Source: an uncultured Bdellovibrionales bacterium (lineage in GTDB: Bacteria > Patescibacteriota > Minisyncoccia > Moranbacterales > UBA1568). Taken from it: 64,000 bases of DNA. The stretch lies in assembly GCA_964384235.1 (NCBI GenBank), contig CAYLJX010000002.1, positions 114,660-178,659 on the forward strand, in the 5' to 3' direction. A program made the position numbers and the translations under genes. The notes beneath the pieces are model-generated. The model worked only from the letters and a program-made list of their open reading frames with translations, was not told the origin of the DNA and searched no databases. The first letter of the stretch is position 1, and every line of letters starts with the position of its first letter. Of this stretch, positions 20,279-59,023 are shown in pieces.

Positions 20279-20794
20279 ATGAATACTTCTTGTCTTATAG
20301 GTTCTTTCCGGATTTCAGTGGTCGTTTTTAGTGTACTGTCTCTTCTGGCATTTCTCGCCGTAGCGGTTTTCTTTATGAATCGAGGAGGGGGTGATAGCGC
20401 AAAGGAAAAACAGGCCGATCAGGGGATCGCGTGTGTTAACTGTCCCGTTCCAGGATCAGGACAGGATGTGGCGGCTGCGACGTTTTCAGGGAAGGCAGTC
20501 CGGGTGTCTGAAACCGATATCATCGTGGAAGCGGACGGTGTCACGCCACGAACATTCATGATCGATGCCGGGACCAAGGTATCTCGGGAACAGTGCCGGA
20601 AGCTCTCACCAGAGGAGCAGGAAGCTATCCAGCAGGGAACGGTTGGGGGTGTGGTGTCGACCGAGTCTTGTGAGCGCATAGAGGCGGTGAGAGGTGATAT
20701 CGGTGCCGGGCAGACCGTCGTGATCGTTCTTGGTCAGGCGGCCGGCCAGTCTGAGGTTGCTCGTGAAGTCATCATCGCTTTTGATCGGCAGTAG
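20279..20794 (+). CDS. membrane-anchored hypothetical protein
   Basis: TM helix at aa 10-35. ATG at 20279 in the frame of ORF 20234..20794. Confidence 0.4.
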   Translation: MNTSCLIGSFRISVVVFSVLSLLAFLAVAVFFMNRGGGDSAKEKQADQGIACVNCPVPGSGQDVAAATFSGKAVRVSETDIIVEADGVTPRTFMIDAGTKVSREQCRKLSPEEQEAIQQGTVGGVVSTESCERIEAVRGDIGAGQTVVIVLGQAAGQSEVAREVIIAFDRQ

Positions 20795-20833
20795 GGTTAT
20801 CAGAGTAGCATCTTGTACTAAGAAACAGCAAAA

Positions 20834-20864
20834 AACCTCGCCCTTTCGGAACGAGGTTTTTTGT
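20834..20864. terminator. bidirectional rho-independent terminator between convergent genes
   Basis: aaaaa-cctcg...cgagg-tttttt hairpin with an A-run on one side and a T-run on the other. Confidence 0.55.
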
Positions 20865-20875
20865 TTCGGGAAAGA

Positions 20876-21220
20876 CTATCGCACTTTCTCTACGAAGGCC
20901 TTGAATGTCTCGGGGTGCTCCATGGCCATCTGCGAGAGTACCTTGCGGTCGAGCTCGATGTTCTTGGTCTTCTCAAGGGCGATGAAGGCGCGGTAGGTGA
21001 TTCCGTGCATGCGAAGAGCGGTGTTGAGCCGGGTGATCCAGAGCGAGCGGAAGCTTCGTTTCTTGGCGCGGCGATCGCGGCGGGCATACTTGCCAGCCTT
21101 GATGACGGCCTCTTTGGCTTTGGTAAAAAGCTTCTTGCGTCCCCAGCGGAAGCCCTTGGCTTGTTTCAAAATATTCTTGTGGCGCTTTTTGGTCATGACG
21201 CCACGCTTGACTCGTGCCAT
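20876..21220 (-). CDS. rplT: 50S ribosomal protein L20
   Basis: MARVKRGVMTKKRHKNILKQAKGFRWGRK... is the canonical L20 sequence. Confidence 0.9.
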   Translation of the reverse strand: MARVKRGVMTKKRHKNILKQAKGFRWGRKKLFTKAKEAVIKAGKYARRDRRAKKRSFRSLWITRLNTALRMHGITYRAFIALEKTKNIELDRKVLSQMAMEHPETFKAFVEKVR

Positions 21221-21230
21221 AGTTTTACTT

Positions 21231-21345
21231 CAGTTAATCGGTTGAAGGGTTAACAAGTTCACAGGTTAGCAGATTTTTCGATAAAAAGTCAATTCTTGAA
21301 TCCTTACTTGTAACTTTTTAACCTGTTAACCGGGGAACTGGAATT
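21231..21345. repeat. GTTAAC-rich intergenic repeat (copy 2), between rpmI and rplT
   Basis: gttgaagggttaacaagttcacaggttagc...aactttttaacctgttaaccgggg. Confidence 0.55.
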
Positions 21346-21539
21346 TATGCGTACGGGAGGGCCTTTTTGATGTTCTTTTCGACGGCGGCGTAGACATCCT
21401 GGTCACGGCGCTTGGCACGATTCTGGTTGCCGGTCGCTCGGGAGTTGTAGTGGTTCTGTCCGGTGGCGCGGGTCTTGATCCTGCCGCTGCCGGTCACCTT
21501 CACTTTTTTAGCGATGGACTTCTTCGTCTTCTGCTTCAT
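21345..21539 (-). CDS. rpmI: 50S ribosomal protein L35
   Basis: 64 aa, MKQKTKKSIAKKVKVTGSG...ALPYA. Confidence 0.85.
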   Translation of the reverse strand: MKQKTKKSIAKKVKVTGSGRIKTRATGQNHYNSRATGNQNRAKRRDQDVYAAVEKNIKKALPYA

Positions 21540-21565
21540 ATTCTTTGAATCATTTAATCTCGTTA

Positions 21566-22114
21566 TTATTCTGGGGCTATGAGAACCGTAAACCCCTTCG
21601 GTCCCCGCTTCACCTCTTCTTCGGTACGGTAGGGGAGCGTGATGCTTTTGAGGAAGAGACTGAGGTTTTCTCGGGCCTTGTCGGTCATGGCTTTCTCACG
21701 ACCGCGCAGGAGGATCTCGATGCGTACCTTGTTTCCTTTGCCGAGGAATTTTTCCGCCTGAGTCTTCTTGAACAGGAGATCGTGCTTGTCGGTGCGGAAG
21801 CCGATACGGATGCCCTTGGTCTCGACTTTTTTCTGTTTGGCCTTCTGCTGCTGTTCCTGCTTGGCCTGCCGGTACTGGAGCTTGCCGTAATCGGTGATCT
21901 TGCAGACCGGCGGTGTCGCCAAGGGGGAGACTTCCACGAGGTCGGCTTCCTGTTCCTGGGCGAGGGCGATCGCGGCGGCAGTGTCCATCTCACCGAGGTT
22001 TTCACCGCTTCCATCGATGACCATGACACGCGGAACGAGAATCTGCTCGTTGACGCGCAGTCGCTGGATGATCTGTGGTTTCGGTTTCGGTCTATTGTGA
22101 CGTCTTCGTCTCAT
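21566..22114 (-). CDS. infC: translation initiation factor IF-3
   Basis: INEQILVPRVMVIDGSGENLGEM..., conserved IF-3 N and C domains. ATG at 22114 chosen. The track ORF extends to 22168 and overlaps the tmRNA 3' end. Confidence 0.8.
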   Translation of the reverse strand: MRRRRHNRPKPKPQIIQRLRVNEQILVPRVMVIDGSGENLGEMDTAAAIALAQEQEADLVEVSPLATPPVCKITDYGKLQYRQAKQEQQQKAKQKKVETKGIRIGFRTDKHDLLFKKTQAEKFLGKGNKVRIEILLRGREKAMTDKARENLSLFLKSITLPYRTEEEVKRGPKGFTVLIAPE

Positions 22115-22133
22115 TGTTCCGCGTATTAAAAAG

Positions 22134-22528
22134 TGGAGTTGATGGGAATCGCACCCATGTCCAGGCATGTTTTTCCAAAATAGTCTACAAGCTTAGTGTC
22201 GCTTGGCATGAAAGAGGAGGGTAGAAGCGGACGAAATCCCTCATCAGTCTCTTCTTCTGCAACAGGTCCTGAAAATGAAGAGAAGGAAGATTCTCAGGCT
22301 GCCTCGATGATATGGCACCGGATGACTCGTATCGAGAATAGGAGGTCCGATGGCTCACGCGATTAGGCGCGGGCAAAAGCGAAAGACGGAGCAAACGCCG
22401 AAGCGATCGCGGTCTTGGCCTTGGTGATGAAGTTTGCAGTTATCATCGTGGGAACGAGTTTTACGATCATGTTCCCGAGATCGGCTTGCGTATTTTGAAA
22501 GTACATCCTGTCGAGTCTAGACAACCCC
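22134..22528 (-). ncRNA. ssrA: tmRNA (SsrA)
   Basis: On the minus strand. 5' end GGGGUUGUCUAGACUCGACAGG (tRNA-like 5' half). 3' end ACAUGGGUGCGAUUCCCAUCAACUCCA: T-arm plus acceptor strand pairing with the 5' GGGGUUG, giving a G3:U70 pair. Internal candidate tag frame GCA AAC ... GCC TAA. Directly downstream of smpB on the same strand. Confidence 0.55.
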
Positions 22529-22707
22529 TTGGTCATTGCAATAGGCGTGTTGCCATTGTGATGACTGAGCGATAGTGTAGAATGCGGTTTTTCTTTTTGG
22601 ATTGCTCAAATTTTAAATTTCTAATTTCAAATTTCTAAACAAAACCGAATGACTGAATGTCTGAAACATTAAAAATTCGGACTTGATTCAAAATTCTGAA
22701 TTCAAAA

Positions 22708-23154
22708 TTAGAAATTCTTTAAAGCTCGCTCGATCTTTCGTTTCGCTTCACGCTTCCCGATGTCCGAGCGCTTGTCGTAGGCTTTTTTCCCCTTGCCCAC
22801 GGCAAACTCCAACTTGACGAGTTGTTTCTTAGTATACAGTCGAATGGGCACTAAAGTCAAGCCTTCGACGCGTGATTTTCCTATCAGAGAGCGGATTTCC
22901 CGACGACGGAGGAGGAGTTTTCTGGAACGAGTGTCTTCGTGCCTCGTGTCCCGGTGGGCATGTTGATAACGAGGGATGAGGGCATTGGTGAGGTAGAGTT
23001 CGCTTCCTTTGACCGTGACAAAGGCTCCTTTGAGGCTTGCATGTCCAGTTTTGACGGATTTTACCTCGGCTCCGGTCAATACCAAACCCGCCTCATATCG
23101 ATCAGAGAGGGCATAATCGAAACTCGCTCGTTTGTTGGTAGCAATGACTTTCAT
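22708..23154 (-). CDS. smpB: SsrA-binding protein SmpB
   Basis: MKVIATNKRASFDYALSDRYEAGLVLTGAEVKSVK... ATG at 23154 within ORF 22708..23268. Confidence 0.85.
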   Translation of the reverse strand: MKVIATNKRASFDYALSDRYEAGLVLTGAEVKSVKTGHASLKGAFVTVKGSELYLTNALIPRYQHAHRDTRHEDTRSRKLLLRRREIRSLIGKSRVEGLTLVPIRLYTKKQLVKLEFAVGKGKKAYDKRSDIGKREAKRKIERALKNF

Positions 23155-23274
23155 AGTATCTAGTATGTAGTATTGGGTATTTAGGGGGAAGGAGCAAGGG
23201 TGATTGACTTGATATGGGAAAAATAGTACTATACCAAGTCGAAGATCACTTCGACTCTTCTTTATCAACTCACC

Positions 23275-23697
23275 GTGGGGAAAGTCATGAAAATAGATGC
23301 GGGTGATGTAGGGACGGTGCTGGGTGCTCTCATGTTGGGGAGTCTGGCAGCTGAAGATCCTCCGCCAGTCTGGTGGAAAAAAACCATGAATAAACTGCTG
23401 TGGACGTCACTGGTCGGGCTTGTCTTGATCGCTGACGTGGTAGTCGGCGTACTCACGTTCTGTGCCAGTGAATACCTCTTGGCGCAGGTGGCATCGCAGT
23501 ACGCGTTCATCGCCGGCTTTCAGGAATTTTTTTCGCCGTACGGATCCGTTGTCTTTGCCCTGCTGTGTGGTGTCGGGCTCCTGCTCTTGCAGATTGGGGC
23601 AACTGTCGCAATCTGGTTCTGGGTGGAGGATATGTCTCCGGCACCTGTTTCTGGTCGGGACATGACCAACCTCTCATCTTTCCGGTGCTCGGGCTGA
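23275..23697 (+). CDS. hypothetical membrane protein
   Basis: Three hydrophobic helices, no motifs. Confidence 0.3.
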   Translation: MGKVMKIDAGDVGTVLGALMLGSLAAEDPPPVWWKKTMNKLLWTSLVGLVLIADVVVGVLTFCASEYLLAQVASQYAFIAGFQEFFSPYGSVVFALLCGVGLLLLQIGATVAIWFWVEDMSPAPVSGRDMTNLSSFRCSG

Positions 23698-23791
23698 TTC
23701 CTCTGGTGCTGGCTGTTTATCGCTGCCGCATACCCTCTCGTGGGCGTGCGGCAGTTTTCTTTTTGGCTTTTTTCGGCTACGATGGGAAAGT

Positions 23792-25414
23792 ATGAAGATT
23801 CTGATCGAGAAACAATTGAGAGAAGCGATACGGGCATTGCAGGAAACAGGGATACTTCCTGCTTTTGATGTTCCTGGAATCCGTGTGGAGCGGCCCAAGG
23901 ACGATCAGTTCGGGGAGTATACGACCAATGTCGCATTGATGATCTCGAAGCAGGCAGGAAAGAGCCCGAGGGAGATAGCGGAAAAAATCAGAGAACAGCT
24001 AACAGAGAACAGTGAGCAGAATACTCTTTTTGAGAAAGTGGAAGTCGCAGGGCCGGGACATCTGAATTTTTATCTGTCGCAGGAGGCGCTCACGAACGTC
24101 GTGCGGGAGGTTTTGGAAAAAGGAGGATCATTCGGTGATTCGAATATCGGCGTAGGGGAGAAAGTGAACAACGAATTTATTTCGGCCAATCCGACGGGAC
24201 CCTTGCATCTTGGCAATGGCCGTGGCGGATTTTATGCCGATTCACTCTCGCGCGTCTTGCGAAAGAGCGGCTATGACGTGACGAACGAATACTATATCAA
24301 CGACGCCGGCGAGCAGGTGATGAAACTGGGGCATAGTGTCTTAAAGGACAGCGAGGCAGTCTATGGCGGCGACTATATCGACGCGCTCAATGAACAGCTA
24401 ACAGCGAACAGTGAACAGAAAAACCTGAATGCGAAAGAAATTGGGGAGTGGGCGGCGGAGATCGTGATGGAGGAGATGGTCAAGAAGACACTCTCTGAAC
24501 AGATGGCTATCTCGTTTGATGTTTTCACGTCAGAGAAGAAGGATGTCGTGGAGAAAGGTTTCGTAGACAAGGCTATCGAGATTTTCAAAGAAAAAGGGCT
24601 AGCGTTCGAAGAAGAGGGGGCACTTTGGCTTCGTACCACCGAGTTCGGTGACGACAAGGACCGCGTGCTCGTGAAGCAAGACGGCTCTCGGACGTACTTC
24701 GCTTCCGACTGTGGATACATCTTGCAGAAAATAGAGCGTGACTTTACGAGACTCATCGAGACATGGGGCGCTGACCATCACGGCTATGTGGCGCGTTTCA
24801 AGGCAGCAGCACAGGCGCTCGGGTTTCAGGGGAAAATCGATTTCCTTCTTGTTCAGCTCGTGAAGCTCGTCAAGGACGGCGTCGAGGTGAGGATGAGCAA
24901 GCGTGCCGGCAACGTGGTGACGATCGACGAGCTCATCGAGACGGTCGGGCACGACGTGGCGCGGTTCTTTTTCCTTATGTACGCGCCGGAGACACATATG
25001 AACTTCGATCTCGGGCTCGCCGAGGAGCGCTCCGCCAAGAACCCGGTCTTCTACGTGCAGTATGCGCACGCGAGGCTCGCGAGTATTCTGCGCAAAGCCG
25101 AGGAGGAAGGATTCGTATCGGACGGCGCCGACCTCTCCCTTCTTATGCATCCCAAGGAGCGTGAACTCATGCGCGAGCTCCTCTTTTTTCCGGAACTCGT
25201 CGAGACAGTCTCGGAAGACTTTTCCGTGCACAAGCTGCCGCAGTATGCTATCCGTCTTGCCGACAAGCTCCATTCTTTCTATGATGAGTGTCGGGTGCTC
25301 GATGCCGAGAATCAGTCTCTCTCGGCGGCACGCCTCGAACTCATCCGTTCTGTCAAGATCGTCCTCGGTGAAACCCTCTCCCTCATGGGTATCGACGCCC
25401 CGGAGAGGATGTAA
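23792..25414 (+). CDS. argS: arginyl-tRNA synthetase
   Basis: ANPTGPLHLGNGRG (HIGH-class motif), class I ArgRS domain order, 540 aa. Confidence 0.9.
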   Translation: MKILIEKQLREAIRALQETGILPAFDVPGIRVERPKDDQFGEYTTNVALMISKQAGKSPREIAEKIREQLTENSEQNTLFEKVEVAGPGHLNFYLSQEALTNVVREVLEKGGSFGDSNIGVGEKVNNEFISANPTGPLHLGNGRGGFYADSLSRVLRKSGYDVTNEYYINDAGEQVMKLGHSVLKDSEAVYGGDYIDALNEQLTANSEQKNLNAKEIGEWAAEIVMEEMVKKTLSEQMAISFDVFTSEKKDVVEKGFVDKAIEIFKEKGLAFEEEGALWLRTTEFGDDKDRVLVKQDGSRTYFASDCGYILQKIERDFTRLIETWGADHHGYVARFKAAAQALGFQGKIDFLLVQLVKLVKDGVEVRMSKRAGNVVTIDELIETVGHDVARFFFLMYAPETHMNFDLGLAEERSAKNPVFYVQYAHARLASILRKAEEEGFVSDGADLSLLMHPKERELMRELLFFPELVETVSEDFSVHKLPQYAIRLADKLHSFYDECRVLDAENQSLSAARLELIRSVKIVLGETLSLMGIDAPERM

Positions 25415-26945: not shown

Positions 26946-29900
26946 ATGTCATTCAAAAAAGTTCCGTCGCAGGTGAGTTTTCCGAAATTGGAGGAGGAGG
27001 TCCTCAAGTATTGGGAGGAGAACAAGATCTTCGAGAAGTCGGTGGAGAAAAATCCCGAGGACAAGACGTTCATTTTTTACGAAGGGCCGCCGACGGCTAA
27101 TGGCAAGCCGGGACTTCATCATGTCCTCGCACGCTCGTTCAAGGACATCATCCCGCGCTACAAGACGATGAAAGGTTATCGTGTCGAGCGCAAGGCCGGC
27201 TGGGACACGCACGGGTTGCCGGTGGAACTCCAGGTGGAAAAAGCACTCGGCCTCAGGAACAAACAGGACATCGAGAATATCGTGCCGGGCGATGCGCGGG
27301 CGAGTGTCATCGAGTTCAACAAGAAGTGCAAGGAATCCGTGTGGGAGTACCGCGACCTCTGGGAGAAGCTCACGCGGCGCATGGGTTATTGGGTCGATAT
27401 GGAACACCCGTACGTGACGTACGAGAACGAATACATCGAGTCGGTGTGGTGGCAGCTCGCGCAGGTCGCGGCACTGAAAAACGAGAAAGGGGAATCTTAT
27501 CTCTACAAGGGACACAAAGTCGTTCCGTACTGCTACCGCTGCGGAACAGCGCTCTCCTCGCACGAGGTGGCGCAGGGGTATCAGACTGTGAAGGATAATT
27601 CAGTGTATGTGAAATTCCAGTTAACAGCGAACAGCGAACAGAAAACGGAAAACAAGACATATCTTTTGGCATGGACCACTACGCCTTGGACTTTACCAGG
27701 AAACGCGGCTTTAGCTGTAAAAAAAGATGAAGTCAAATATATAACACTTGAAACTGAAGCTGATACGTCAAATTTAAAAAAAGGCGATCAAGTAGTCTTT
27801 GCTTTTACCCATGAGATATTAGGACGTGTTTTAGGTGATAATTTTAAGGAATTTCATAAGAGTAACCATGATTTATTGAATGCTGTTCCTGAGGCATACG
27901 AAACAGAAACCGGTGTGAGATATAAAGTTATAGGATTATGTGATGGGAATGAATTGTTAGGAAAACTATACGAACCTCTTTACGAAACCACAGGAAAAGA
28001 TGCGGAGAAATGTTACAGAGTGGTGGCGGGGGATTTCGTCACGACGACCGATGGTACGGGGATCGTGCACATCGCGCCGGCGTTCGGTGAGGATGATGCC
28101 AACGTCGGCAAGGAGAACGGTCTGCCGACGCTCCTGACTGTAGAGACGGACGGAACGCTCATGAAAGGTTTCGGTCTGCCGGGTGAGGGGATTCCGGTCA
28201 AGAAAAAGAACGACAAGAACCGCTATGCCGTGGACGATCTCATCATCGAGGACCTGAAACAGCGAGGACTGTTTTTCAATGAAGAAGTGTATGAGCATGA
28301 GTACCCGTTCTGCTGGCGTTGTGACACGCCGCTTATCTACTTCGCCAAGCCGTCGTGGTTCATCCGAATGGGTGAGCTTCGGGACGAACTCGTAAAGAAC
28401 AACGAGAGTATCACCTGGGTGCCGGAACATATCAAGGAAGGGCGCTTCGGCGAGTGGTTGCGCGGCGTGAAGGATTGGGCCATCTCACGTGAACGTTACT
28501 GGGGTACGCCGCTTCCCATTTGGGAATGTGACACGTGTGATACACGGAAAGTGATTTCTTCGACTGACGAACTGACGAAATTTTCCGGTAAGAAACTCGA
28601 AGATGTGCATAAGCCGTACATTGATGATGTGACGTGGTCATGCGAATGCGGTGGTACGATGAAACGGACGCCGGAAGTGCTCGACGTGTGGTTCGATTCC
28701 GGCGCGATGCCCTTGGCGCAGTTTACCTATCCGGAGCAGTCCGATGCGGTGGTCAAGGAAAAAATCGAATCCGGGAAATATTTCCCGGCGGACTATATCT
28801 GCGAGGCGATCGACCAGACGAGAGGGTGGTTCTATACGCTCCATGCCATCGCGACGCTTCTCAATAAGGCCGGGAAAGTGCCGGTAGGCAACGCCTACAA
28901 GAACGTCATCTGTCTCGGGCACGTGCTCGACGCGCAGGGCAAAAAGATGTCCAAGTCCAAGGGGAATGTCATCGATCCGTTCCAGATGTTTGAGGAATAC
29001 GGTGCCGATCCCTTGCGCTGGATGCTCTTCTCGATCAATCAGCCGGGACTACCGAAGCGTTTCGACGTGAAGGGGATGCGCGACGTGCAGAACCGCGTGT
29101 TCCGTATGCTCTGGAACTCGTACTCGTTCTTCATGACGTATGCGGCAATCGACGGTTGGCAGCCAAAAGCTACAAGCCACAAGCCACAAGCTACAAGCTT
29201 GCTCGACCGATGGATCGTTTCGGAATTACAGATGCTTATTAGGGGGGTCGATGGATCGCTTGCTGCTTATGATGTCTATACACCGACCAAGAAGATCGAG
29301 GTGTTCATTGATAATCTCTCCAATTGGTACATCCGTCGGAGCCGCGACCGCTTCTGGAAATCAGATGATGATACTGACAAGAACCAGGCATATCAGACGC
29401 TCTATGATGTGCTCGTGACGCTCTCGAAATTGATGGCCCCGTTCACGCCGTTCGTCGCCGAAGAAATCTATAGGGGATTAACAGGAAAAGAGTCCGTACA
29501 TCTCGCAGACTGGCCGGAGGCGGATGAAAAATTGATTGATGAAAACCTGAATGAAGAGATGCAACACGCCAGATTTATTGTGACGATGGGATTGAAAGTC
29601 CGCGCCGATGAAAAAATTAAAGTTCGTCAGCCACTTCAGAAAATAACAGCACGCCCGCTTGAGAAGGAACTGCAAGGAATTGTGTTGGATGAACTGAATG
29701 TGAAGGAATATGTCGAGCGTAAGGAAATGAACGAACTAGTTGAACTTGATCTGACTCCCAATGATGATCTTAGACTCGAGGGTGAGATGAATGAGATCAA
29801 CCGGGCAATCCAGGATGGCCGCAAGAAGGCGGAGTTTAATGTGGAGGACCGGATCGTACTCGGCTATCAGGGAAAGGAGGAAGTTTTTGAGAAGTTCGGT

Positions 29901-30020
29901 GATGAGATTGCAAAGAAAATCCTCGCGACGGAAGTAAAGAATGAAAATCTCACCGACGCCGAATACTCCGGAACGGTCGAAATCGAAGGAGAATCATTCT
30001 TGTTCTGGCTCAAACGGTAG
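26946..30020 (+). CDS. ileS: isoleucyl-tRNA synthetase
   Basis: PPTANGKPGLHHVLARSFKDI (HIGH-like region), KMSKSKGN, editing CP1 domain, 1024 aa. Confidence 0.9.
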   Translation: MSFKKVPSQVSFPKLEEEVLKYWEENKIFEKSVEKNPEDKTFIFYEGPPTANGKPGLHHVLARSFKDIIPRYKTMKGYRVERKAGWDTHGLPVELQVEKALGLRNKQDIENIVPGDARASVIEFNKKCKESVWEYRDLWEKLTRRMGYWVDMEHPYVTYENEYIESVWWQLAQVAALKNEKGESYLYKGHKVVPYCYRCGTALSSHEVAQGYQTVKDNSVYVKFQLTANSEQKTENKTYLLAWTTTPWTLPGNAALAVKKDEVKYITLETEADTSNLKKGDQVVFAFTHEILGRVLGDNFKEFHKSNHDLLNAVPEAYETETGVRYKVIGLCDGNELLGKLYEPLYETTGKDAEKCYRVVAGDFVTTTDGTGIVHIAPAFGEDDANVGKENGLPTLLTVETDGTLMKGFGLPGEGIPVKKKNDKNRYAVDDLIIEDLKQRGLFFNEEVYEHEYPFCWRCDTPLIYFAKPSWFIRMGELRDELVKNNESITWVPEHIKEGRFGEWLRGVKDWAISRERYWGTPLPIWECDTCDTRKVISSTDELTKFSGKKLEDVHKPYIDDVTWSCECGGTMKRTPEVLDVWFDSGAMPLAQFTYPEQSDAVVKEKIESGKYFPADYICEAIDQTRGWFYTLHAIATLLNKAGKVPVGNAYKNVICLGHVLDAQGKKMSKSKGNVIDPFQMFEEYGADPLRWMLFSINQPGLPKRFDVKGMRDVQNRVFRMLWNSYSFFMTYAAIDGWQPKATSHKPQATSLLDRWIVSELQMLIRGVDGSLAAYDVYTPTKKIEVFIDNLSNWYIRRSRDRFWKSDDDTDKNQAYQTLYDVLVTLSKLMAPFTPFVAEEIYRGLTGKESVHLADWPEADEKLIDENLNEEMQHARFIVTMGLKVRADEKIKVRQPLQKITARPLEKELQGIVLDELNVKEYVERKEMNELVELDLTPNDDLRLEGEMNEINRAIQDGRKKAEFNVEDRIVLGYQGKEEVFEKFGDEIAKKILATEVKNENLTDAEYSGTVEIEGESFLFWLKR

Positions 30021-36270: not shown

Positions 36271-37686
36271 ATGTCGCAAGAAAATAACGCGCAACTGATG
36301 GACAAGATCGTCTCTCTCGCCAAGCGCCGAGGATTCGTGTTTCCGTCATCGGAAATCTACGGCGGTTTCGCGGCGGTCTATGACTTCGGACCGTATGGCG
36401 TGGAGCTCGCCAAGAACATCCGCGAGGCGTGGTGGAAGGCGATGGTGTACGAACACGACAACATCGTCGGGCTCGACAGCGCCATCTTCATGCATCCGAA
36501 GGTCTGGGAAGCATCCGGTCATGTCGGCGGTTTCAGCGATCCTTTGGCTGAGTGCAAGGAGTGTCATACCCGCGTGCGCGTCGATCATCTCCTCGAAGAA
36601 GCGGGTGTCTTCGCGGACGAAAAGATGAGTGAGACGGAAATCAATGAACTCTTTCGGTCCGTCCGTGACAAAGTGAAGTGTCCCAAGTGCGGTAACAAAA
36701 ACTTCTCCGACGCCAAGAAGTTCAATCTCCTCGTCAAATCGAATCTCGGAAACTTCACTGGCGATTGGAATGACAACCCGACCTACCTGCGTGGCGAGAC
36801 GTGCCAGGGTATCTATGTCAATTTCAAGAACGTGCTCGATTCGTCCCGCGTCAAGGTACCCTTCGGCATCGCACAGATCGGCAAGGCGTTCCGCAACGAA
36901 ATCACGGCGCGGCAGTTCATCTTCCGCAAGCGCGAGTTCGAACAGATGGAGATGCAGTACTTCGTCCGACCGGAAGAAGCCGAAGCGACCTACGAGGAGT
37001 GGCGCAAGAAGCGTTTTCAGTACTATCTCGACCTCGGATTGAAAGCGGAAAATCTCCGCTGGCACGAGCATGAGAACCTCGTCTTCTATGCCAAGGCGGC
37101 CTGGGATATCGAGTATAACTTTCCCTTCGGCTTCAAGGAGCTCGAAGGTATCCACAACCGAAGCGATTACGACCTCACGCAGCATTCCAAATTCTCCGGT
37201 GTCGATCTTTCCTATCGTGACCCGCAGACCGGCGAGAAGTATATCCCGTGGATCGTGGAAACGTCGGTCGGTCTCGATCGGACGTTCCTCGCGGTGTTGA
37301 CCGATGCGTACACGGAGGAACAAGTCGGGGAGGGTGACACTCGTGTCGTCCTGAAATTTCCGAAGTCGCTCGCGCCGGTACAGGTGGCGGTGTTCCCGCT
37401 TCTCAAGAACAAGCCGGAGCTCGTGGAGAAGGCACGCGAGGTATACACCATGCTCAAGAAGGAGTTCCGCTCTGAATGGGATGACAATGGTAATGTCGGC
37501 AAGCGCTACCGCCGTCAGGACGAGATCGGCACACCGTACTGCGTCACCATCGACTTCGACACGTTGGGTGCTGGCACGGATGCATCCCTTACCGGTACCG
37601 TCACCGTCCGCGACCGCGACACGATGCAGCAGACCCGTATCGCCATCGCTGACTTGCAGAAGTATTTTTCCGAGAACCTCTCGTAA
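36271..37686 (+). CDS. glyQS: glycyl-tRNA synthetase, dimeric class II type
   Basis: FVFPSSEIYGGFAAVYDFGPYGVELAKNIREAWW, class II motifs 2 and 3 (FRNEITARQFIFRKREFEQMEMQYF). Confidence 0.9.
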   Translation: MSQENNAQLMDKIVSLAKRRGFVFPSSEIYGGFAAVYDFGPYGVELAKNIREAWWKAMVYEHDNIVGLDSAIFMHPKVWEASGHVGGFSDPLAECKECHTRVRVDHLLEEAGVFADEKMSETEINELFRSVRDKVKCPKCGNKNFSDAKKFNLLVKSNLGNFTGDWNDNPTYLRGETCQGIYVNFKNVLDSSRVKVPFGIAQIGKAFRNEITARQFIFRKREFEQMEMQYFVRPEEAEATYEEWRKKRFQYYLDLGLKAENLRWHEHENLVFYAKAAWDIEYNFPFGFKELEGIHNRSDYDLTQHSKFSGVDLSYRDPQTGEKYIPWIVETSVGLDRTFLAVLTDAYTEEQVGEGDTRVVLKFPKSLAPVQVAVFPLLKNKPELVEKAREVYTMLKKEFRSEWDDNGNVGKRYRRQDEIGTPYCVTIDFDTLGAGTDASLTGTVTVRDRDTMQQTRIAIADLQKYFSENLS

Positions 37687-41098: not shown

Positions 41099-42556
41099 AT
41101 GGAAAATACCGAAAATAAGCCAGCCCGCATCGCTACGCGAAGCGTTGCTGGCGGGCCATTTTTTATTACGACACCCATCTATTACGTGAACGGGCGGCCC
41201 CATATCGGCCATGCCTATACGACCGTGGCGGCGGACTGTCTCGCTCGGTTCAAACGTCTTCAGGGGGAAGAAATCTTCTTCTCGACGGGAACGGACGAGC
41301 ACGGGATGAAGATACAGAAAAAGGCCGAGGAAGAAGGGAAAGAGACAAGTGTCTTCGTCGACGGGATCGCGGAAACGTTCCGAGACCTCTGGGAGAAACT
41401 CGGTATCAGCTATACGCGGTTCATCCGCACGACCGAGCCGGCACACAAGGCAGCGGTACAAAAGGTGCTCCAGGATTTCTATGACCGTGGCATCATCTAC
41501 AAGGGTTTTTACGAGGGACTCTACTGCGCCGGCTGCGAACAGTTCAAGATCGCGGACGATCTGGTCGATGGCAAGTGTCCCGACCATGGCACCGTTCCGG
41601 AGCTCATGAAAGAGGAGAGCTACGTCATGAAGATGACCGTCATGCAGGACGAGCTCATCCGAAGAATCGAGCAGGACGAGCTGTATGTCGCACCGGAGAA
41701 ATACAAGACGGAAATATTGTCTTTCCTCAAAGGCGAACGGCTCGAGGATATCTCCATCTCACGCAAGAACGTCCGGTGGGGGATACCGCTTCCTTTCGAT
41801 GGGACGCATACGACGTACGTGTGGGTGGACGCTTTCCTTAATTACCTCACGGTGCTCGGTTGGGACGGGAACAGGGAGAGCGTTCCGCGAGAGTGGCCGG
41901 CCGACGTGCAGTTCATCGGCAAGGATATCCTCCGCGTGCATGCCACCATCTGGCCGGTGATTCTCATGCACCTCGGGTTCCCCACGCAGAAAGTCCTCTT
42001 CACGCACGGATTCATCCTCTCCGGTGGCAAGAAGATGAGCAAGACCCTCGGGAACGTCATCTCACCCGACGAGATGATCGAGCGCTTCGGTGCCGACGGG
42101 ACGAGGTACCTCCTCATGAGTGCCGGACGTTTCGGTGAGGATATCGATTTGACGCTTGAGCGCGCGACGGAGAAATACAACGCCGACCTCGCGAACGGTC
42201 TCGGCAACCTGGTTTCGCGCGTGATGAAGCTCGCGGAGAGTTCATCGAACGTAAGCTATCCGCTCGTCACGGGATGGCCTGAGGAGTTCGTCCTGTATAT
42301 GGGCGCGTGCTCCCTGTATGAGGCGCTCGAATCCGTGATGGACCGGGTGCGCGCCATGAACAAGAAGATCGACGACGCCAAACCATGGGTCTTAGTGAAA
42401 GAAGACAAACCGAAATTCGAGGAAGTCATGAACGGGTTCCTCGCCGAACTCAACGAACTCTCGTTCCTGCTGCAGCCGTTCCTCCCGGAAACCGCCCAAA
42501 AAATCCAAACCGCCCTCACGGAAGGCAAAACCGAACCACTTTTTAAGAGAATCTAG
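41099..42556 (+). CDS. metG: methionyl-tRNA synthetase
   Basis: PIYYVNGRPHIGHAYT (HIGH), KMSKTLGN, Zn-knuckle CAGCEQF...CPDHG. Confidence 0.9.
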   Translation: MENTENKPARIATRSVAGGPFFITTPIYYVNGRPHIGHAYTTVAADCLARFKRLQGEEIFFSTGTDEHGMKIQKKAEEEGKETSVFVDGIAETFRDLWEKLGISYTRFIRTTEPAHKAAVQKVLQDFYDRGIIYKGFYEGLYCAGCEQFKIADDLVDGKCPDHGTVPELMKEESYVMKMTVMQDELIRRIEQDELYVAPEKYKTEILSFLKGERLEDISISRKNVRWGIPLPFDGTHTTYVWVDAFLNYLTVLGWDGNRESVPREWPADVQFIGKDILRVHATIWPVILMHLGFPTQKVLFTHGFILSGGKKMSKTLGNVISPDEMIERFGADGTRYLLMSAGRFGEDIDLTLERATEKYNADLANGLGNLVSRVMKLAESSSNVSYPLVTGWPEEFVLYMGACSLYEALESVMDRVRAMNKKIDDAKPWVLVKEDKPKFEEVMNGFLAELNELSFLLQPFLPETAQKIQTALTEGKTEPLFKRI

Positions 42557-46255: not shown

Positions 46256-47755
<1,500 letters not shown>

Positions 47756-49241: not shown

Positions 49242-50639
<1,398 letters not shown>

Positions 50640-53193: not shown

Positions 53194-55632
53194 ATGTCCA
53201 AGTCGTACAACCCCAAGTCCATCGAGGGAAAATGGCAGAAAACATGGGAGAAACAAGGTATCTATCGGCAATACAAGCGGTCGAAAAAGTTCTACGTGCT
53301 CGATATGTTTCCCTATCCGTCGGGCGCAGGGCTCCATGTCGGCCATCCCAAGGGTTACATCGCGACGGACGTGGTAGCACGAATGAAACAACTGCAGGGC
53401 TACGGCGTGCTCCATCCGATGGGATGGGATGCGTTCGGATTGCCGGCGGAGCAGTTCGCCATCAAGAACAAGGTCCATCCGGAAATCGCCGTGAGAAAGA
53501 ACGTCGCGACGTTCAAGAAACAGCTCGCGAAGATCGGTTTCACATACGACTGGGAGCGCGAGATCAACACGACCGACCCGGAGTACTACCGGTGGACGCA
53601 GTGGATCTTTCTCCAACTCTGGAAGAAAGGACTGGCCTACGAGTCATACGATCCGATCAACTGGTGTCCGTCGTGCCAGACGGGACTCGCGAACGAGGAT
53701 CTGGAGCAGGGGAAGTGCGAGCGCTGTGCCAGTGTCGTCGAGAAGAAACCGATGCGACAGTGGGTGCTCGCGATGACCAGGTACGCTGACCGGCTGCTCA
53801 AGGACCTGGATACGCAGAAACTCGAGTGGAGCGAATCGATCAAGGAACAGCAGCGCAACTGGATCGGACGGAGCGAAGGGATGCTTTTTACGTCGCCGAT
53901 CAAGGATAGTGACCTGAAGATCCAGACATTCAGTGCTCATTTTGAAGCATTTCGTGCCGACACATTCGTAGTGATTGCCCCTGATCATCCGATGCTTCCG
54001 AAGCTGCTTGATGGCGTAAAGGACAAGGAAAAAATCCTTCAAGTCTGTTCCGAGATGATCAGGAAACGCGAAGCGGCAGGATATGAGAATCAGAAGGAGA
54101 TCGAAGGGGTATTTACCGGACGACACACGGTGGATCCGGTCGGAAACGGAGAGCTTCCTATCTGGGTAGCGAGCTATGCTTTGGCTGAATATGGTACGGG
54201 TATCGTGAAGTGCTCAGCACACGATGAGCGTGATTTCGCTTTCGCGAAGAAATACGGGATCCGATTGAAACCGGTATTGTTTCCGGAAGATCTGATAGAA
54301 AGGAAAAAAGTCGAGAATCTGGAATATTGCTACAGTGATATGTCGCAGGGGGTTCTGACGGAGCCGGTGGAGTTCAATGGGAAAAAATCAGGCGAGTCCC
54401 GGCAGGAGATTATAGGGTATCTTGCGAAGAATAAGCTTGCCGCAAAGAAAGTCTCCTACAAGATGCGTGACTGGACGTTCTCGCGGCAGCGATACTGGGG
54501 CGAGCCGATTCCGCTCATTTATTGTGAGAAGTGCGGAGTCGTGCCGGTGCCGGAAAAGGATCTACCGGTGCTCCTTCCGAAGGTGAAATCGTATGAGCCG
54601 ACAGGGACGGGAGAATCGCCGCTTGCCAACATCACCAAGTGGGTGAATGTACGGTGTCCGAAGTGCAAGGGCAAGGCTAAGCGAGAAACGAATACCATGC
54701 CGCAGTGGGCGGGGTCCTGCTGGTACTACCTGCGCTACATCGATCCCAAGAGCCGGAAAGCGCTCGTCGACAAGAAGTTAGAGAAGAAGATGATGCCGGT
54801 CGACGTCTATGTCGGCGGGACGGAGCATGCCACGAGGCACCTCCTCTATGCGCGTTTTTGGCACAAATTCCTCTATGATATCAAGGCGGTTTCCGGCAAG
54901 GAGCCTTTCAAGAAGCTCGTTAATCAGGGACTCATCCTTGCTTCCGACGGGCGCAAGATGTCTAAGCGCTGGGGGAATGTCATCAATCCTGACGATATGA
55001 TCGATCAGTTCGGCGCGGACGCATTCCGACTTTATGAGATGTTCATGGGACCGTTCACACAATCGATCGCGTGGAATACGGACGGTGTGGTGGGAACACG
55101 CAGATTTCTGGAGAAGGTGTGGAAACTTCGGGATCGAATATCGAATATCGAATATCGAATATCGAATAAAGATACGGAAACCCTCCTTCACAAGACTATC
55201 AAGAGTGTTACCGAAGATATTGAGGACTTCAAATTCAATACCGCGGTCAGCAGTCTGATGATCTTGGTGAATGCCCTGGAAAAAGAAACCAATATTTCAC
55301 ATTCTACATTCAATATTCTTCTTATCCTTCTCTCTCCGTTTGCGCCGCATATCGCGGAGGAACTCTGGTATGAAATGGGGAACAAGAAGTCCATCTTTCT
55401 TGCCGAGTGGCCGAAGTGGGATAAGCGAAAAATCGTCGCCGAGACGGTGAAGATCGCCGTGCAGGTAAATGGCAAGGTGCGTGCGACGGTCGAGGTGGAA
55501 AGCGGAGCGACAGAAGAGGTAGTGAAAGCGCTCGCGCTCGCCGATACGAACGTCCAAGCGCACGTGGCCGGCAAAGAAATCCGCAAAGCGATCTATGTCC
55601 CCGGGAGAATACTGAATCTGGTGGTTATGTGA
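53194..55632 (+). CDS. leuS: leucyl-tRNA synthetase
   Basis: FPYPSGAGLHVGHPKGY (HIGH), KMSKRWGN, CP1 editing domain, 812 aa. Confidence 0.9.
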   Translation: MSKSYNPKSIEGKWQKTWEKQGIYRQYKRSKKFYVLDMFPYPSGAGLHVGHPKGYIATDVVARMKQLQGYGVLHPMGWDAFGLPAEQFAIKNKVHPEIAVRKNVATFKKQLAKIGFTYDWEREINTTDPEYYRWTQWIFLQLWKKGLAYESYDPINWCPSCQTGLANEDLEQGKCERCASVVEKKPMRQWVLAMTRYADRLLKDLDTQKLEWSESIKEQQRNWIGRSEGMLFTSPIKDSDLKIQTFSAHFEAFRADTFVVIAPDHPMLPKLLDGVKDKEKILQVCSEMIRKREAAGYENQKEIEGVFTGRHTVDPVGNGELPIWVASYALAEYGTGIVKCSAHDERDFAFAKKYGIRLKPVLFPEDLIERKKVENLEYCYSDMSQGVLTEPVEFNGKKSGESRQEIIGYLAKNKLAAKKVSYKMRDWTFSRQRYWGEPIPLIYCEKCGVVPVPEKDLPVLLPKVKSYEPTGTGESPLANITKWVNVRCPKCKGKAKRETNTMPQWAGSCWYYLRYIDPKSRKALVDKKLEKKMMPVDVYVGGTEHATRHLLYARFWHKFLYDIKAVSGKEPFKKLVNQGLILASDGRKMSKRWGNVINPDDMIDQFGADAFRLYEMFMGPFTQSIAWNTDGVVGTRRFLEKVWKLRDRISNIEYRISNKDTETLLHKTIKSVTEDIEDFKFNTAVSSLMILVNALEKETNISHSTFNILLILLSPFAPHIAEELWYEMGNKKSIFLAEWPKWDKRKIVAETVKIAVQVNGKVRATVEVESGATEEVVKALALADTNVQAHVAGKEIRKAIYVPGRILNLVVM

Positions 55633-58933: not shown

Positions 58934-59016
58934 GCCGCGGTGGTGGAATGGTAGACACACGGGACTCAAAATCCCGCGATAGCAATATCATGAGAGTTCG
59001 AGTCTCTCCCGCGGCA
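58934..59016 (+). tRNA. tRNA-Leu (anticodon CAA), long variable arm
   Basis: GCCGCGG acceptor, 3-bp D-stem, anticodon loop CUCAAAA, long extra arm, T-arm GAGAG-TTCGAGT-CTCTC, acceptor CCGCGGC plus A. CCA not encoded. Confidence 0.7.
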
Positions 59017-59023
59017 CACCTGA

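Follow-up and report, generated by a model that had tools for sequence, protein, structure and literature searches.

A functional-looking one-piece tmRNA gene between smpB and infC in an uncultured Candidatus Moranbacteria genome

The transfer-messenger RNA (tmRNA) is the ribosome-rescue RNA of almost all bacteria. In the window (the whole stretch of 64,000 nucleotides that was analysed), a candidate gene for this RNA, ssrA, lies on the minus strand between the gene for its partner protein, smpB, and a group of translation genes that begins with infC. The features of this region are, in 5' to 3' order on that strand:

22708-23154, minus strand: smpB, tmRNA-binding partner protein, 148 aa (Pfam PF01668, 2.6e-51, full profile)
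22529-22707, minus strand: smpB-ssrA spacer, AT-rich, 179 nt (sequence)
22134-22528, minus strand: ssrA, one-piece tmRNA (RF00023; relaxed ARAGORN; homologues in 30 relatives; covariation)
22115-22133, minus strand: ssrA-infC spacer CUUUUUAAUACGCGGAACA, 19 nt (sequence)
21566-22114, minus strand: infC, encoding IF3, 182 aa, ATG start (Pfam IF3_N and IF3_C; TIGR00168, 2.8e-40)
21345-21539, minus strand: rpmI, encoding L35 (Pfam PF01632, 2.1e-10)
20876-21220, minus strand: rplT, encoding L20 (Pfam PF00453, 3.7e-38)
20829-20863, minus strand: terminator-like hairpin after rplT, 15-pair stem and T-rich tail (scan)

The smpB gene is intact and lies 179 nt upstream of ssrA on the same strand. Its product scores above the cut-offs of the NCBIfam equivalogs NF003843 and TIGR00086 and is 88-89% identical to proteins from Candidatus Moranbacteria/Moraniibacteriota MAGs. 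At the other side of ssrA, the N-terminus of the infC product (M/V/L-RRRRHNRPKPK) is conserved, with ATG, GTG or TTG as start codon, and several relatives have in-frame stops upstream of it; the infC start is thus fixed at 22114. When Rfam was run below threshold over 20700-23400 in search of an L20 leader or another cis-element, the matches were all at chance level, and the rpmI-rplT spacer folds no better than its shuffles (z -1.2).

The proposal of the sequence-only reading, a tmRNA gene downstream of smpB, is borne out by four lines of evidence: the Rfam tmRNA model, ARAGORN with relaxed thresholds, the same gene in 30 relatives and covariation of the predicted helices. RF00023 matches 22131-22528 of the minus strand with 106.7 bits (gathering score 47; E-value: 1e-40), and the alignment spans model positions 1-374 of 374, so that the match is full-length rather than truncated. 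It is the sole tmRNA match by Rfam within the 64-kb window. The gene has no intron and measures 395 nt up to the discriminator A (22134). A two-piece (permuted) tmRNA was considered and rejected: RF00023 is the one-piece family, the match is colinear over 1-374, and ARAGORN reports the non-permuted form. Based on these results and those below, we judge it very probable (about 0.96) that 22528-22134 of the minus strand is the functional ssrA of an uncultured member of Candidatus Moranbacteria (Patescibacteria/CPR).

The arrangement recurs in related genomes. In 30 Moranbacteria loci, smpB is immediately followed, on its own strand, by a full-length tmRNA (85-133 bits by Rfam). Next to this tmRNA comes infC in 26 of these loci and also in L019; the remaining three loci end before the infC position. 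An insertion in place of infC had been suspected in L019 and was discarded, as an N-masked gap had hidden the gene and the infC N-terminus is present. In most relatives the ssrA-infC spacer is 15-32 nt long. A genomic island or phage attachment at ssrA was likewise rejected: the 3' 23 nt of the gene are single-copy in the window, no viral contig matches were found, and infC comes directly after ssrA. A literature search on tmRNA in CPR, Parcubacteria or Moranbacteria returned nothing particular to this clade.

Within ssrA, the following elements were delimited, again from 5' to 3':

22510-22528, minus strand: acceptor 5' strand G1-G7, D-loop UCUAGACU and CGAC (sequence, 31-sequence alignment)
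22450-22484, minus strand: pseudoknot 1 (PK1), CGAUC/GAUCG crossing GGGAAC/GUUCCC (covariation)
22363-22437, minus strand: tag frame, GCA (22437-22435), 24 codons, then UAA (22365-22363), peptide ANFITKAKTAIASAFAPSFAFARA (ARAGORN, Rfam, substitutions)
22353-22374, minus strand: helix 5 with the stop codon in its loop, GC..CGCG CCUAAU CGCG..GC (MFE fold, Rfam alignment)
22302-22352, minus strand: pseudoknot 2 (PK2), CAUCGGA..CUC/GAG..UCCGGUG crossing UCUCGAU/AUCGAGG (covariation)
22248-22298, minus strand: pseudoknot 3 (PK3), CCUGAGAAU/AUUUUCAGG crossing UCUCUUC/GAAGAGA (pyrimidine/purine runs) or a homologous register (per-sequence search)
22198-22242, minus strand: pseudoknot 4 (PK4), GAGGG/CCCUC crossing GUC.GCUU/AAGC.GAC (per-sequence search, RNAalifold)
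22134-22192, minus strand: 3' strands of helix 2, T-arm, acceptor 3' strand and discriminator A (pairing, covariation)

The two ends of the molecule form the tRNA-like domain. The 5' end, read on the minus strand from 22528, is GGGGUUGUCUAGACUCGACAGG, and its first seven bases (G1-G7) pair over 7 bp with the acceptor 3' strand CAACUCC (22141-22135), which is followed by the discriminator A. The pairing of 5' GGGGUUG with the 3' acceptor strand, including a G3:U pair, had been read from the sequence beforehand and is indeed visible there; across the 31 aligned Moranbacteria sequences the acceptor stem (P1) is 100% paired with one covarying pair, and G3:U is invariant (31/31). The T-arm AUGGG-UGCGAUU-CCCAU, also noticed earlier, is found in place at 22158-22142 and consists of a 5-bp stem and a 7-nt loop, 100% paired with two covarying pairs in the same set. 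Its loop is unusual in that G replaces the second U seen in tRNAs and most tmRNAs (the psi55 position; U342 of E. coli tmRNA), and a UGCRAUU T-loop is found in all 31 Moranbacteria sequences. The D-loop carries AG and not the usual GG, as it does in nearly all of these sequences (L025 and L026 have CG). We suggest that the D-loop A could contact the T-loop G in place of an interaction of the G18-psi55 type seen in tRNA. The three bases that follow the discriminator are CUU, so the window ssrA does not encode CCA, which must therefore be added after transcription; six relatives do encode it. Post-transcriptional addition of CCA is common among tRNA-like genes and is no objection to membership in the tmRNA family.

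The secondary structure was examined on a MAFFT alignment of the 31 sequences with a hand-written full structure that includes all four pseudoknots. RNAalifold predicts the acceptor stem, helix 2, the T-arm, a PK4 stem and one stem each of PK1 and PK2, with compensatory changes at 39 of 65 predicted pairs. Under the full structure 81.6% of the cells are paired, compared with 74.0 +/- 0.4% in shuffles and 40-50% after displacement of the partners by 1-3 columns, and both sides have changed at 62 pairs (42.5 in shuffles). On each of five measures, none of 500 shuffles reached the observed value. Pairing is 84-100% in P1, in the three segments of helix 2 (P2a, P2b and P2c), in both stems of PK1 and of PK2, and in the T-arm; the long helix 2, itself within this range, shows compensatory changes. 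The stems of PK1 are 97% and 87% paired; one pair has 14 double changes, and six of six pairs of its second stem covary. PK2 (helices 7-9) is 86-96% paired with many double changes, such as A-U to G-C in 14 sequences. The register of helix 5 differs between relatives.

On the MAFFT columns, PK3 and PK4 are just 52-67% paired. The register shifts by one column between sequences in this alignment, so column-based covariation is unreliable for these two pseudoknots, and each sequence was instead searched on its own for two tandem H-type pseudoknots. PK3 and PK4 were found at homologous positions, with differing sequences, in all 24 closer relatives. Stem 1 of PK3 occurs as CCUGAGAAU/AUUUUCAGG, GAAGAA/UUCUUC or CCGACA/UGUCGG, and stem 1 of PK4 as GAGGG/CCCUC, AAAUGAAUGAG/CUCAUUCAUUU or CCCUGAAAAG/CUUUUCAGGG. 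The search gave 64 for the window against 42.4 +/- 7.0 for shuffles, a comparison to be read as indicative given a null of 20 mononucleotide shuffles per sequence. RNAalifold independently reports the second stem of PK4 as a helix with covariation, and stem 1 of PK3 appears in the minimum free energy (MFE) fold. The MFE fold of the single sequence also contains the acceptor stem, helix 2, the T-arm, the nested pseudoknot stems and helix 5, whose loop contains UAA; the folding z-score of the whole molecule is modest (-1.9). Taken together, the helices and pseudoknots describe a canonical one-piece tmRNA with four pseudoknots.

The frame from GCA to UAA that the sequence-only reading had put forward as the tag was arrived at again by three routes: the tag given by relaxed ARAGORN (ANFITKAKTAIASAFAPSFAFARA*) is identical to it, GCA aligns to the consensus resume codon in the Rfam alignment, where it follows AUAACU, and the substitutions are those of a coding sequence. 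The AUA at -6 to -4 of the resume codon is conserved in the 31-sequence alignment and is the context of the E. coli resume codon too. The frame opens with an alanine resume codon, has neither a start codon nor a Shine-Dalgarno sequence and stops in the hairpin loop of helix 5. Because the tmRNA-borne alanine precedes the 24 encoded residues, the appended tag would be 25 residues long.

A related tag of 23-25 residues that ends in A-x-A is encoded by all 31 sequences, with the consensus ANFITK[AT]KNA[IF]AQAFAPSFA..A. Its commonest forms are ANFITKAKNA[IF]AQAFAPSFAPALA and ANFITKTKNAIAQAFAPSF[AS]LALA, and the ending of the window tag, FAFARA, is found in L029 also. Seven residues never vary (A1, N2, K8, A12, A14, F15 and the terminal A) and P17-S18-F/Y19 hardly do. 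The penultimate position is occupied by any of L, R, F, H, I, T or A, and the window tag ends in ARA compared with the usual ALA or LAA. For the 27 tags that are 24 codons long, minor-allele counts at codon positions 1, 2 and 3 are 81, 54 and 192; where codons differ, the difference is synonymous 2264 times in the tag frame and 668 and 175 times when the other two are read. Third-position variability and an excess of synonymous differences in this frame alone indicate that the tag frame is under coding selection.

The E. coli ssrA sequence and the smpB-ssrA gene order of that species served as the basis for comparison. As in E. coli SsrA and RF00023 generally, the window gene has a tRNA-Ala-like domain with G3:U and a discriminator A, the junction motifs UCGAC and GGAC, and helix 2. 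As in E. coli SsrA, PK1 precedes a GCA resume codon, the loop of helix 5 holds the stop codon and three further pseudoknots follow; smpB is immediately upstream of ssrA in both. The E. coli tag has 10 encoded residues and ends in LAA, against 24 and ARA for the window tag. The window gene further differs from that of E. coli in its UGCGAUU T-loop, in a D-loop with two bases fewer and AG where GG is usual, in the lack of an encoded CCA and in the start of infC within 19 nt. The architecture is shared by four other Patescibacteria loci (L043, L045, L050 and L046), which encode shorter related tags (..PSFAPxLA/..PTFAPALA; ANNVMAMIKNAFRVPSFAPALA, ANLLNKVKAAFAPTFAPALA). Unlike the window, all four have a canonical UUCRAUY T-loop. 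The D-loop is GG in L043, L045 and L050, and L046 combines AG with the canonical T-loop; in L043, L045 and L050, ssrA lies on the opposite strand to smpB, which also differs from the window. Mycoplasma ssrA tags are long (about 27 residues) and are degraded by Lon. The window tag resembles them in being unusually long, hydrophobic and alanine-rich in a lineage with a reduced genome, but shares no sequence similarity with them. For a T-loop G in place of E. coli U342, there are precedents in the tmRNAs of Caulobacter crescentus and the Reclinomonas americana mitochondrion (PMC1168896), although both belong to unrelated lineages and are either permuted and two-piece or reduced, whereas the window tmRNA is one-piece with four pseudoknots.

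ARAGORN, which had been suggested as a check, gave a divided answer. With default settings it calls a tRNA-Leu(CAA) at 58934-59017 alone in the window and no tmRNA, whereas with relaxed thresholds it calls ssrA at 22133-22528, with the label 'tmRNAp', read here as a low-score flag. The default miss, this flag, and a T-loop, D-loop and tag end that are off consensus would fit a decaying pseudogene, a former ssrA that has drifted and no longer functions. Such decay is very improbable here, as the UGCRAUU T-loop is shared by all 31 Moranbacteria sequences and the AG D-loop by nearly all of them, together with strong compensatory changes in their helices; the tag frame has evolved under purifying, coding-type substitution, the Rfam score exceeds the gathering threshold more than twofold, and the adjoining smpB is intact. 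The miss itself has a simple cause. Changing T-loop G to U, D-loop A to G, or the tag ending ARA to ALA in silico restores the default call, each change being sufficient alone; adding CCA in silico did not restore it. The gene thus falls just short of the default score threshold, which is no sign of decay, and small clade-specific departures in the T-loop, the D-loop and the ending ARA account for the shortfall. Gene callers suggest a different reading of the same bases, namely a small protein gene. On Logan contigs (assembled from public sequencing runs) they place a 57-aa ORF (22536-22363) over the 5' half of ssrA, and on two of five such contigs they stretch infC into the ssrA 3' end, as a 200-aa product from 22168. 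Both ORFs exist mechanically, but we give a protein-coding role almost no credence. The ATG of the 57-aa ORF (22536) lies in a non-conserved leader upstream of G1 where relatives are wholly different, and upstream of the resume codon substitutions track RNA pairing (the PK1 covariation) and not codons. The longer infC is opposed by the conservation of the N-terminus MRRRRHNRPKPK with its ATG/GTG/TTG starts and by the upstream in-frame stops of several relatives. The preferred reading thus stays that of a functional-looking ssrA, and this ssrA is an ordinary further member of a very well-known family, a standard one-piece tmRNA.

How ssrA and infC are expressed is less clear-cut. The smpB-ssrA spacer contains weak sigma-70-like sites (22639-22610), tandem repeats of 7/14 nt and an inverted repeat of 18 nt. 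About 50-65 nt before G1, most relatives carry the motif TAGAC-N3-4-TC and, after it, a hairpin whose sequence varies; the window version of the motif has diverged (CUACACUAUCGC). The motif and leader hairpin suggest a dedicated ssrA promoter and a leader that would be cut off by RNase P. The ssrA 3' end had been described as adjoining the infC start, and the two are indeed close, with 19 nt between A22134 and the infC ATG (22114). This spacer is too short for a promoter, so infC transcription must start within or upstream of ssrA. It is plausible that ssrA, infC, rpmI and rplT are co-transcribed; the 19-nt spacer, the clade-wide gene order and the lone terminator-like hairpin 3' of rplT (the only such hairpin on the minus strand in 20500-23800) are consistent with this. 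A U-run follows the acceptor stem in the window and in many relatives and could cause partial termination. On a different account, ssrA would be an independent unit that ends at this U-run, infC-rpmI-rplT would be transcribed from a promoter inside the 3' part of ssrA, and no functional co-transcript would exist. The acceptor 3' strand is followed by AC-UUUUU, with T-runs in many relatives, and a weak promoter-like match lies inside the gene (22335-22307). In E. coli, infC is transcribed from promoters within the upstream gene thrS, which offers a parallel. We consider this account possible, if somewhat short of an even chance: the internal match agrees at only 9 of 12 positions and does not stand out in a region with 8 such sites against 2.1 expected (shuffled), no canonical terminator hairpin abuts the U-run, and the tight ssrA-infC junction conserved across the clade is explained equally well by read-through and processing.

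The window ssrA is probably transcribed from a promoter of its own within the AT-rich smpB-ssrA spacer. By analogy with other tmRNAs, RNase P would cut the precursor at G1, the 3' end would be trimmed after A395 and CCA supplied by the CCA-adding enzyme, and alanyl-tRNA synthetase (AlaRS) would charge the RNA with alanine via G3:U. Together with SmpB and EF-Tu, the tmRNA would occupy the vacant A site when a ribosome has stalled on a broken mRNA, and the nascent chain would be passed to it. Translation would then switch to the tag frame, and the released protein would carry A-ANFITKAKTAIASAFAPSFAFARA and be marked for proteolysis. Transcription of infC-rpmI-rplT must begin inside ssrA or else read through it, in which case processing would remove the tRNA-like 3' end.

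A more far-reaching proposal is that the Moranbacteria tmRNA has been remodelled in three linked ways, at its elbow, in its degron and in a shared ssrA-infC transcript. At the elbow, the change of the U55-equivalent of the T-loop to G and of a D-loop G to A could together form a different tertiary contact, for which a modification of the psi55 type would be unneeded. The degradation signal may reside in the conserved interior AFAPSF of the 25-residue tag rather than in a C-terminal dipeptide; the penultimate residue of the tag varies freely. Finally, excision of the CCA-less tRNA-like 3' end may create a short infC mRNA 5' end poor in Shine-Dalgarno sequence. If true, a single ssrA-infC-rpmI-rplT transcript would couple ribosome rescue with the supply of an initiation factor. 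That all three changes hold jointly seems to us unlikely. The T-loop and D-loop changes, long tag, absent CCA and infC link are minor variations and unsurprising.

The significance of this gene is chiefly one of annotation, and knowledge of tmRNA itself is unchanged. ARAGORN with default settings misses 14 of the 30 Moranbacteria relatives, and because of such misses and the spurious ORF calls, annotations of MAGs could wrongly list genomes of this kind as having no tmRNA. The locus also indicates that a CPR lineage with a reduced genome has kept a complete trans-translation system with a four-pseudoknot tmRNA, and specialists may find modest leads in the altered T-loop and D-loop, in the long and conserved tag and in the short distance between ssrA and infC. 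None of the ten large ORFs annotated in the window encodes Lon, Clp or FtsH. The window otherwise holds housekeeping genes, among them those for ArgRS, IleRS, MetRS, LeuRS, a class II synthetase, the alpha and beta subunits of ATP synthase and an M16 peptidase. This locus occurs in the public sequencing runs SRR14932582, SRR16481187, SRR25392349, SRR25392347 and SRR16481186. The exact SmpB protein was found on five assembled Logan contigs, in which the gene order is identical to that of the window.

The tmRNA T-loop has the sequence UGCRAUU, with G at the psi55-equivalent position (the second T-loop base), and this is fixed in all of the Moranbacteria loci related to the window (L006-L040). 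AG replaces GG in the D-loop of nearly all of these loci. In contrast, other Patescibacteria (loci L043, L045 and L050) retain UUC in the T-loop together with GG in the D-loop. An earlier known case of a T-loop G is that of Caulobacter. At default settings, ARAGORN missed the tmRNAs of 14 of the 30 relatives. The corresponding window sites are:

22151-22152, minus strand: T-loop site
22518, minus strand: D-loop site

Three relatives carry an insertion of approximately 35 nt immediately 3' of the tag stop codon, which is probably an extended helix 5; ARAGORN did not find these three tmRNAs, even with relaxed settings. They are located at:

L013, 4822-5260: tmRNA with insertion
L025, 4549-4984: tmRNA with insertion
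L026, 4551-4986: tmRNA with insertion

Within this one clade, CCA is encoded at the tmRNA gene's 3' end in six genomes (L010, L012, L019, L021, L024 and L030) and is encoded neither in the window, where CUU is found, nor in the remaining relatives.

Public gene calls overlap ssrA at both ends. A 57-aa ORF is called over the 5' half of the tmRNA (22363-22536, minus strand) in an identical sequence, and on two contigs the infC start is called at 22168, within the tmRNA 3' end, which makes the called infC product 200 aa long. Both the ORF and the 200-aa product are artefacts. Because the infC N-terminus is conserved and in-frame stops occur upstream of it in relatives, the infC start is fixed at 22114.

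22115-22168, minus strand: N-terminal over-extension of infC into the tmRNA (public gene calls)

The ssrA-infC spacer is 15-32 nt in most of the clade, whereas it is 70-105 nt in three relatives, in which it contains tandem repeats or palindromic sequence (GCTAACGAAGCTAGAGAA is present twice in that of L008). These regions are:

L006, 4956-5098: long-spacer region
L008, 5053-5195: long-spacer region
L022, 4921-5030: long-spacer region

On the other side of the gene, the sequence between smpB and ssrA (window 22529-22716) is AT-rich and includes the following repeats:

22606-22638 and 22686-22717: 7/14-nt tandem repeats
22616-22633 with 22699-22716: 18-nt inverted repeat, overlapping the smpB stop codon

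GGAAATT/AGAAATT repeats resembling those of the window are found 5' of ssrA in L006, L025, L026, L028 and L036. Approximately 50-65 nt before the 5' end of the tmRNA, most relatives (L007-L035) have a conserved TAGAC-N3-4-TC(A/G)C motif, followed on its 3' side by a hairpin in which pairing is kept while the sequence varies (for example, L008 4590-4648). The window's counterpart of the motif is CUACACUAUCGC, at about 22575-22590. The motif and hairpin may constitute a promoter or leader element.

Many of the closest relatives (L006, L011, L012, L014 and other TPA MAG records) are labelled "uncultured Bdellovibrionales". These labels look like mis-assignments, as the SmpB, tmRNA and gene order of the relatives that bear them are those of Moranbacteria MAGs.

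Elsewhere, this one 64-kb window carries multiple aminoacyl-tRNA synthetase genes (ArgRS, IleRS, a class II enzyme, MetRS and LeuRS), as well as a tRNA-Leu(CAA) gene and ATP synthase genes:

23792-25414, 26946-30020, 36271-37686, 41099-42556, 53194-55632 and 58934-59017: aminoacyl-tRNA synthetase genes and tRNA-Leu(CAA)
46256-47755 and 49254-50639: ATP synthase alpha and beta
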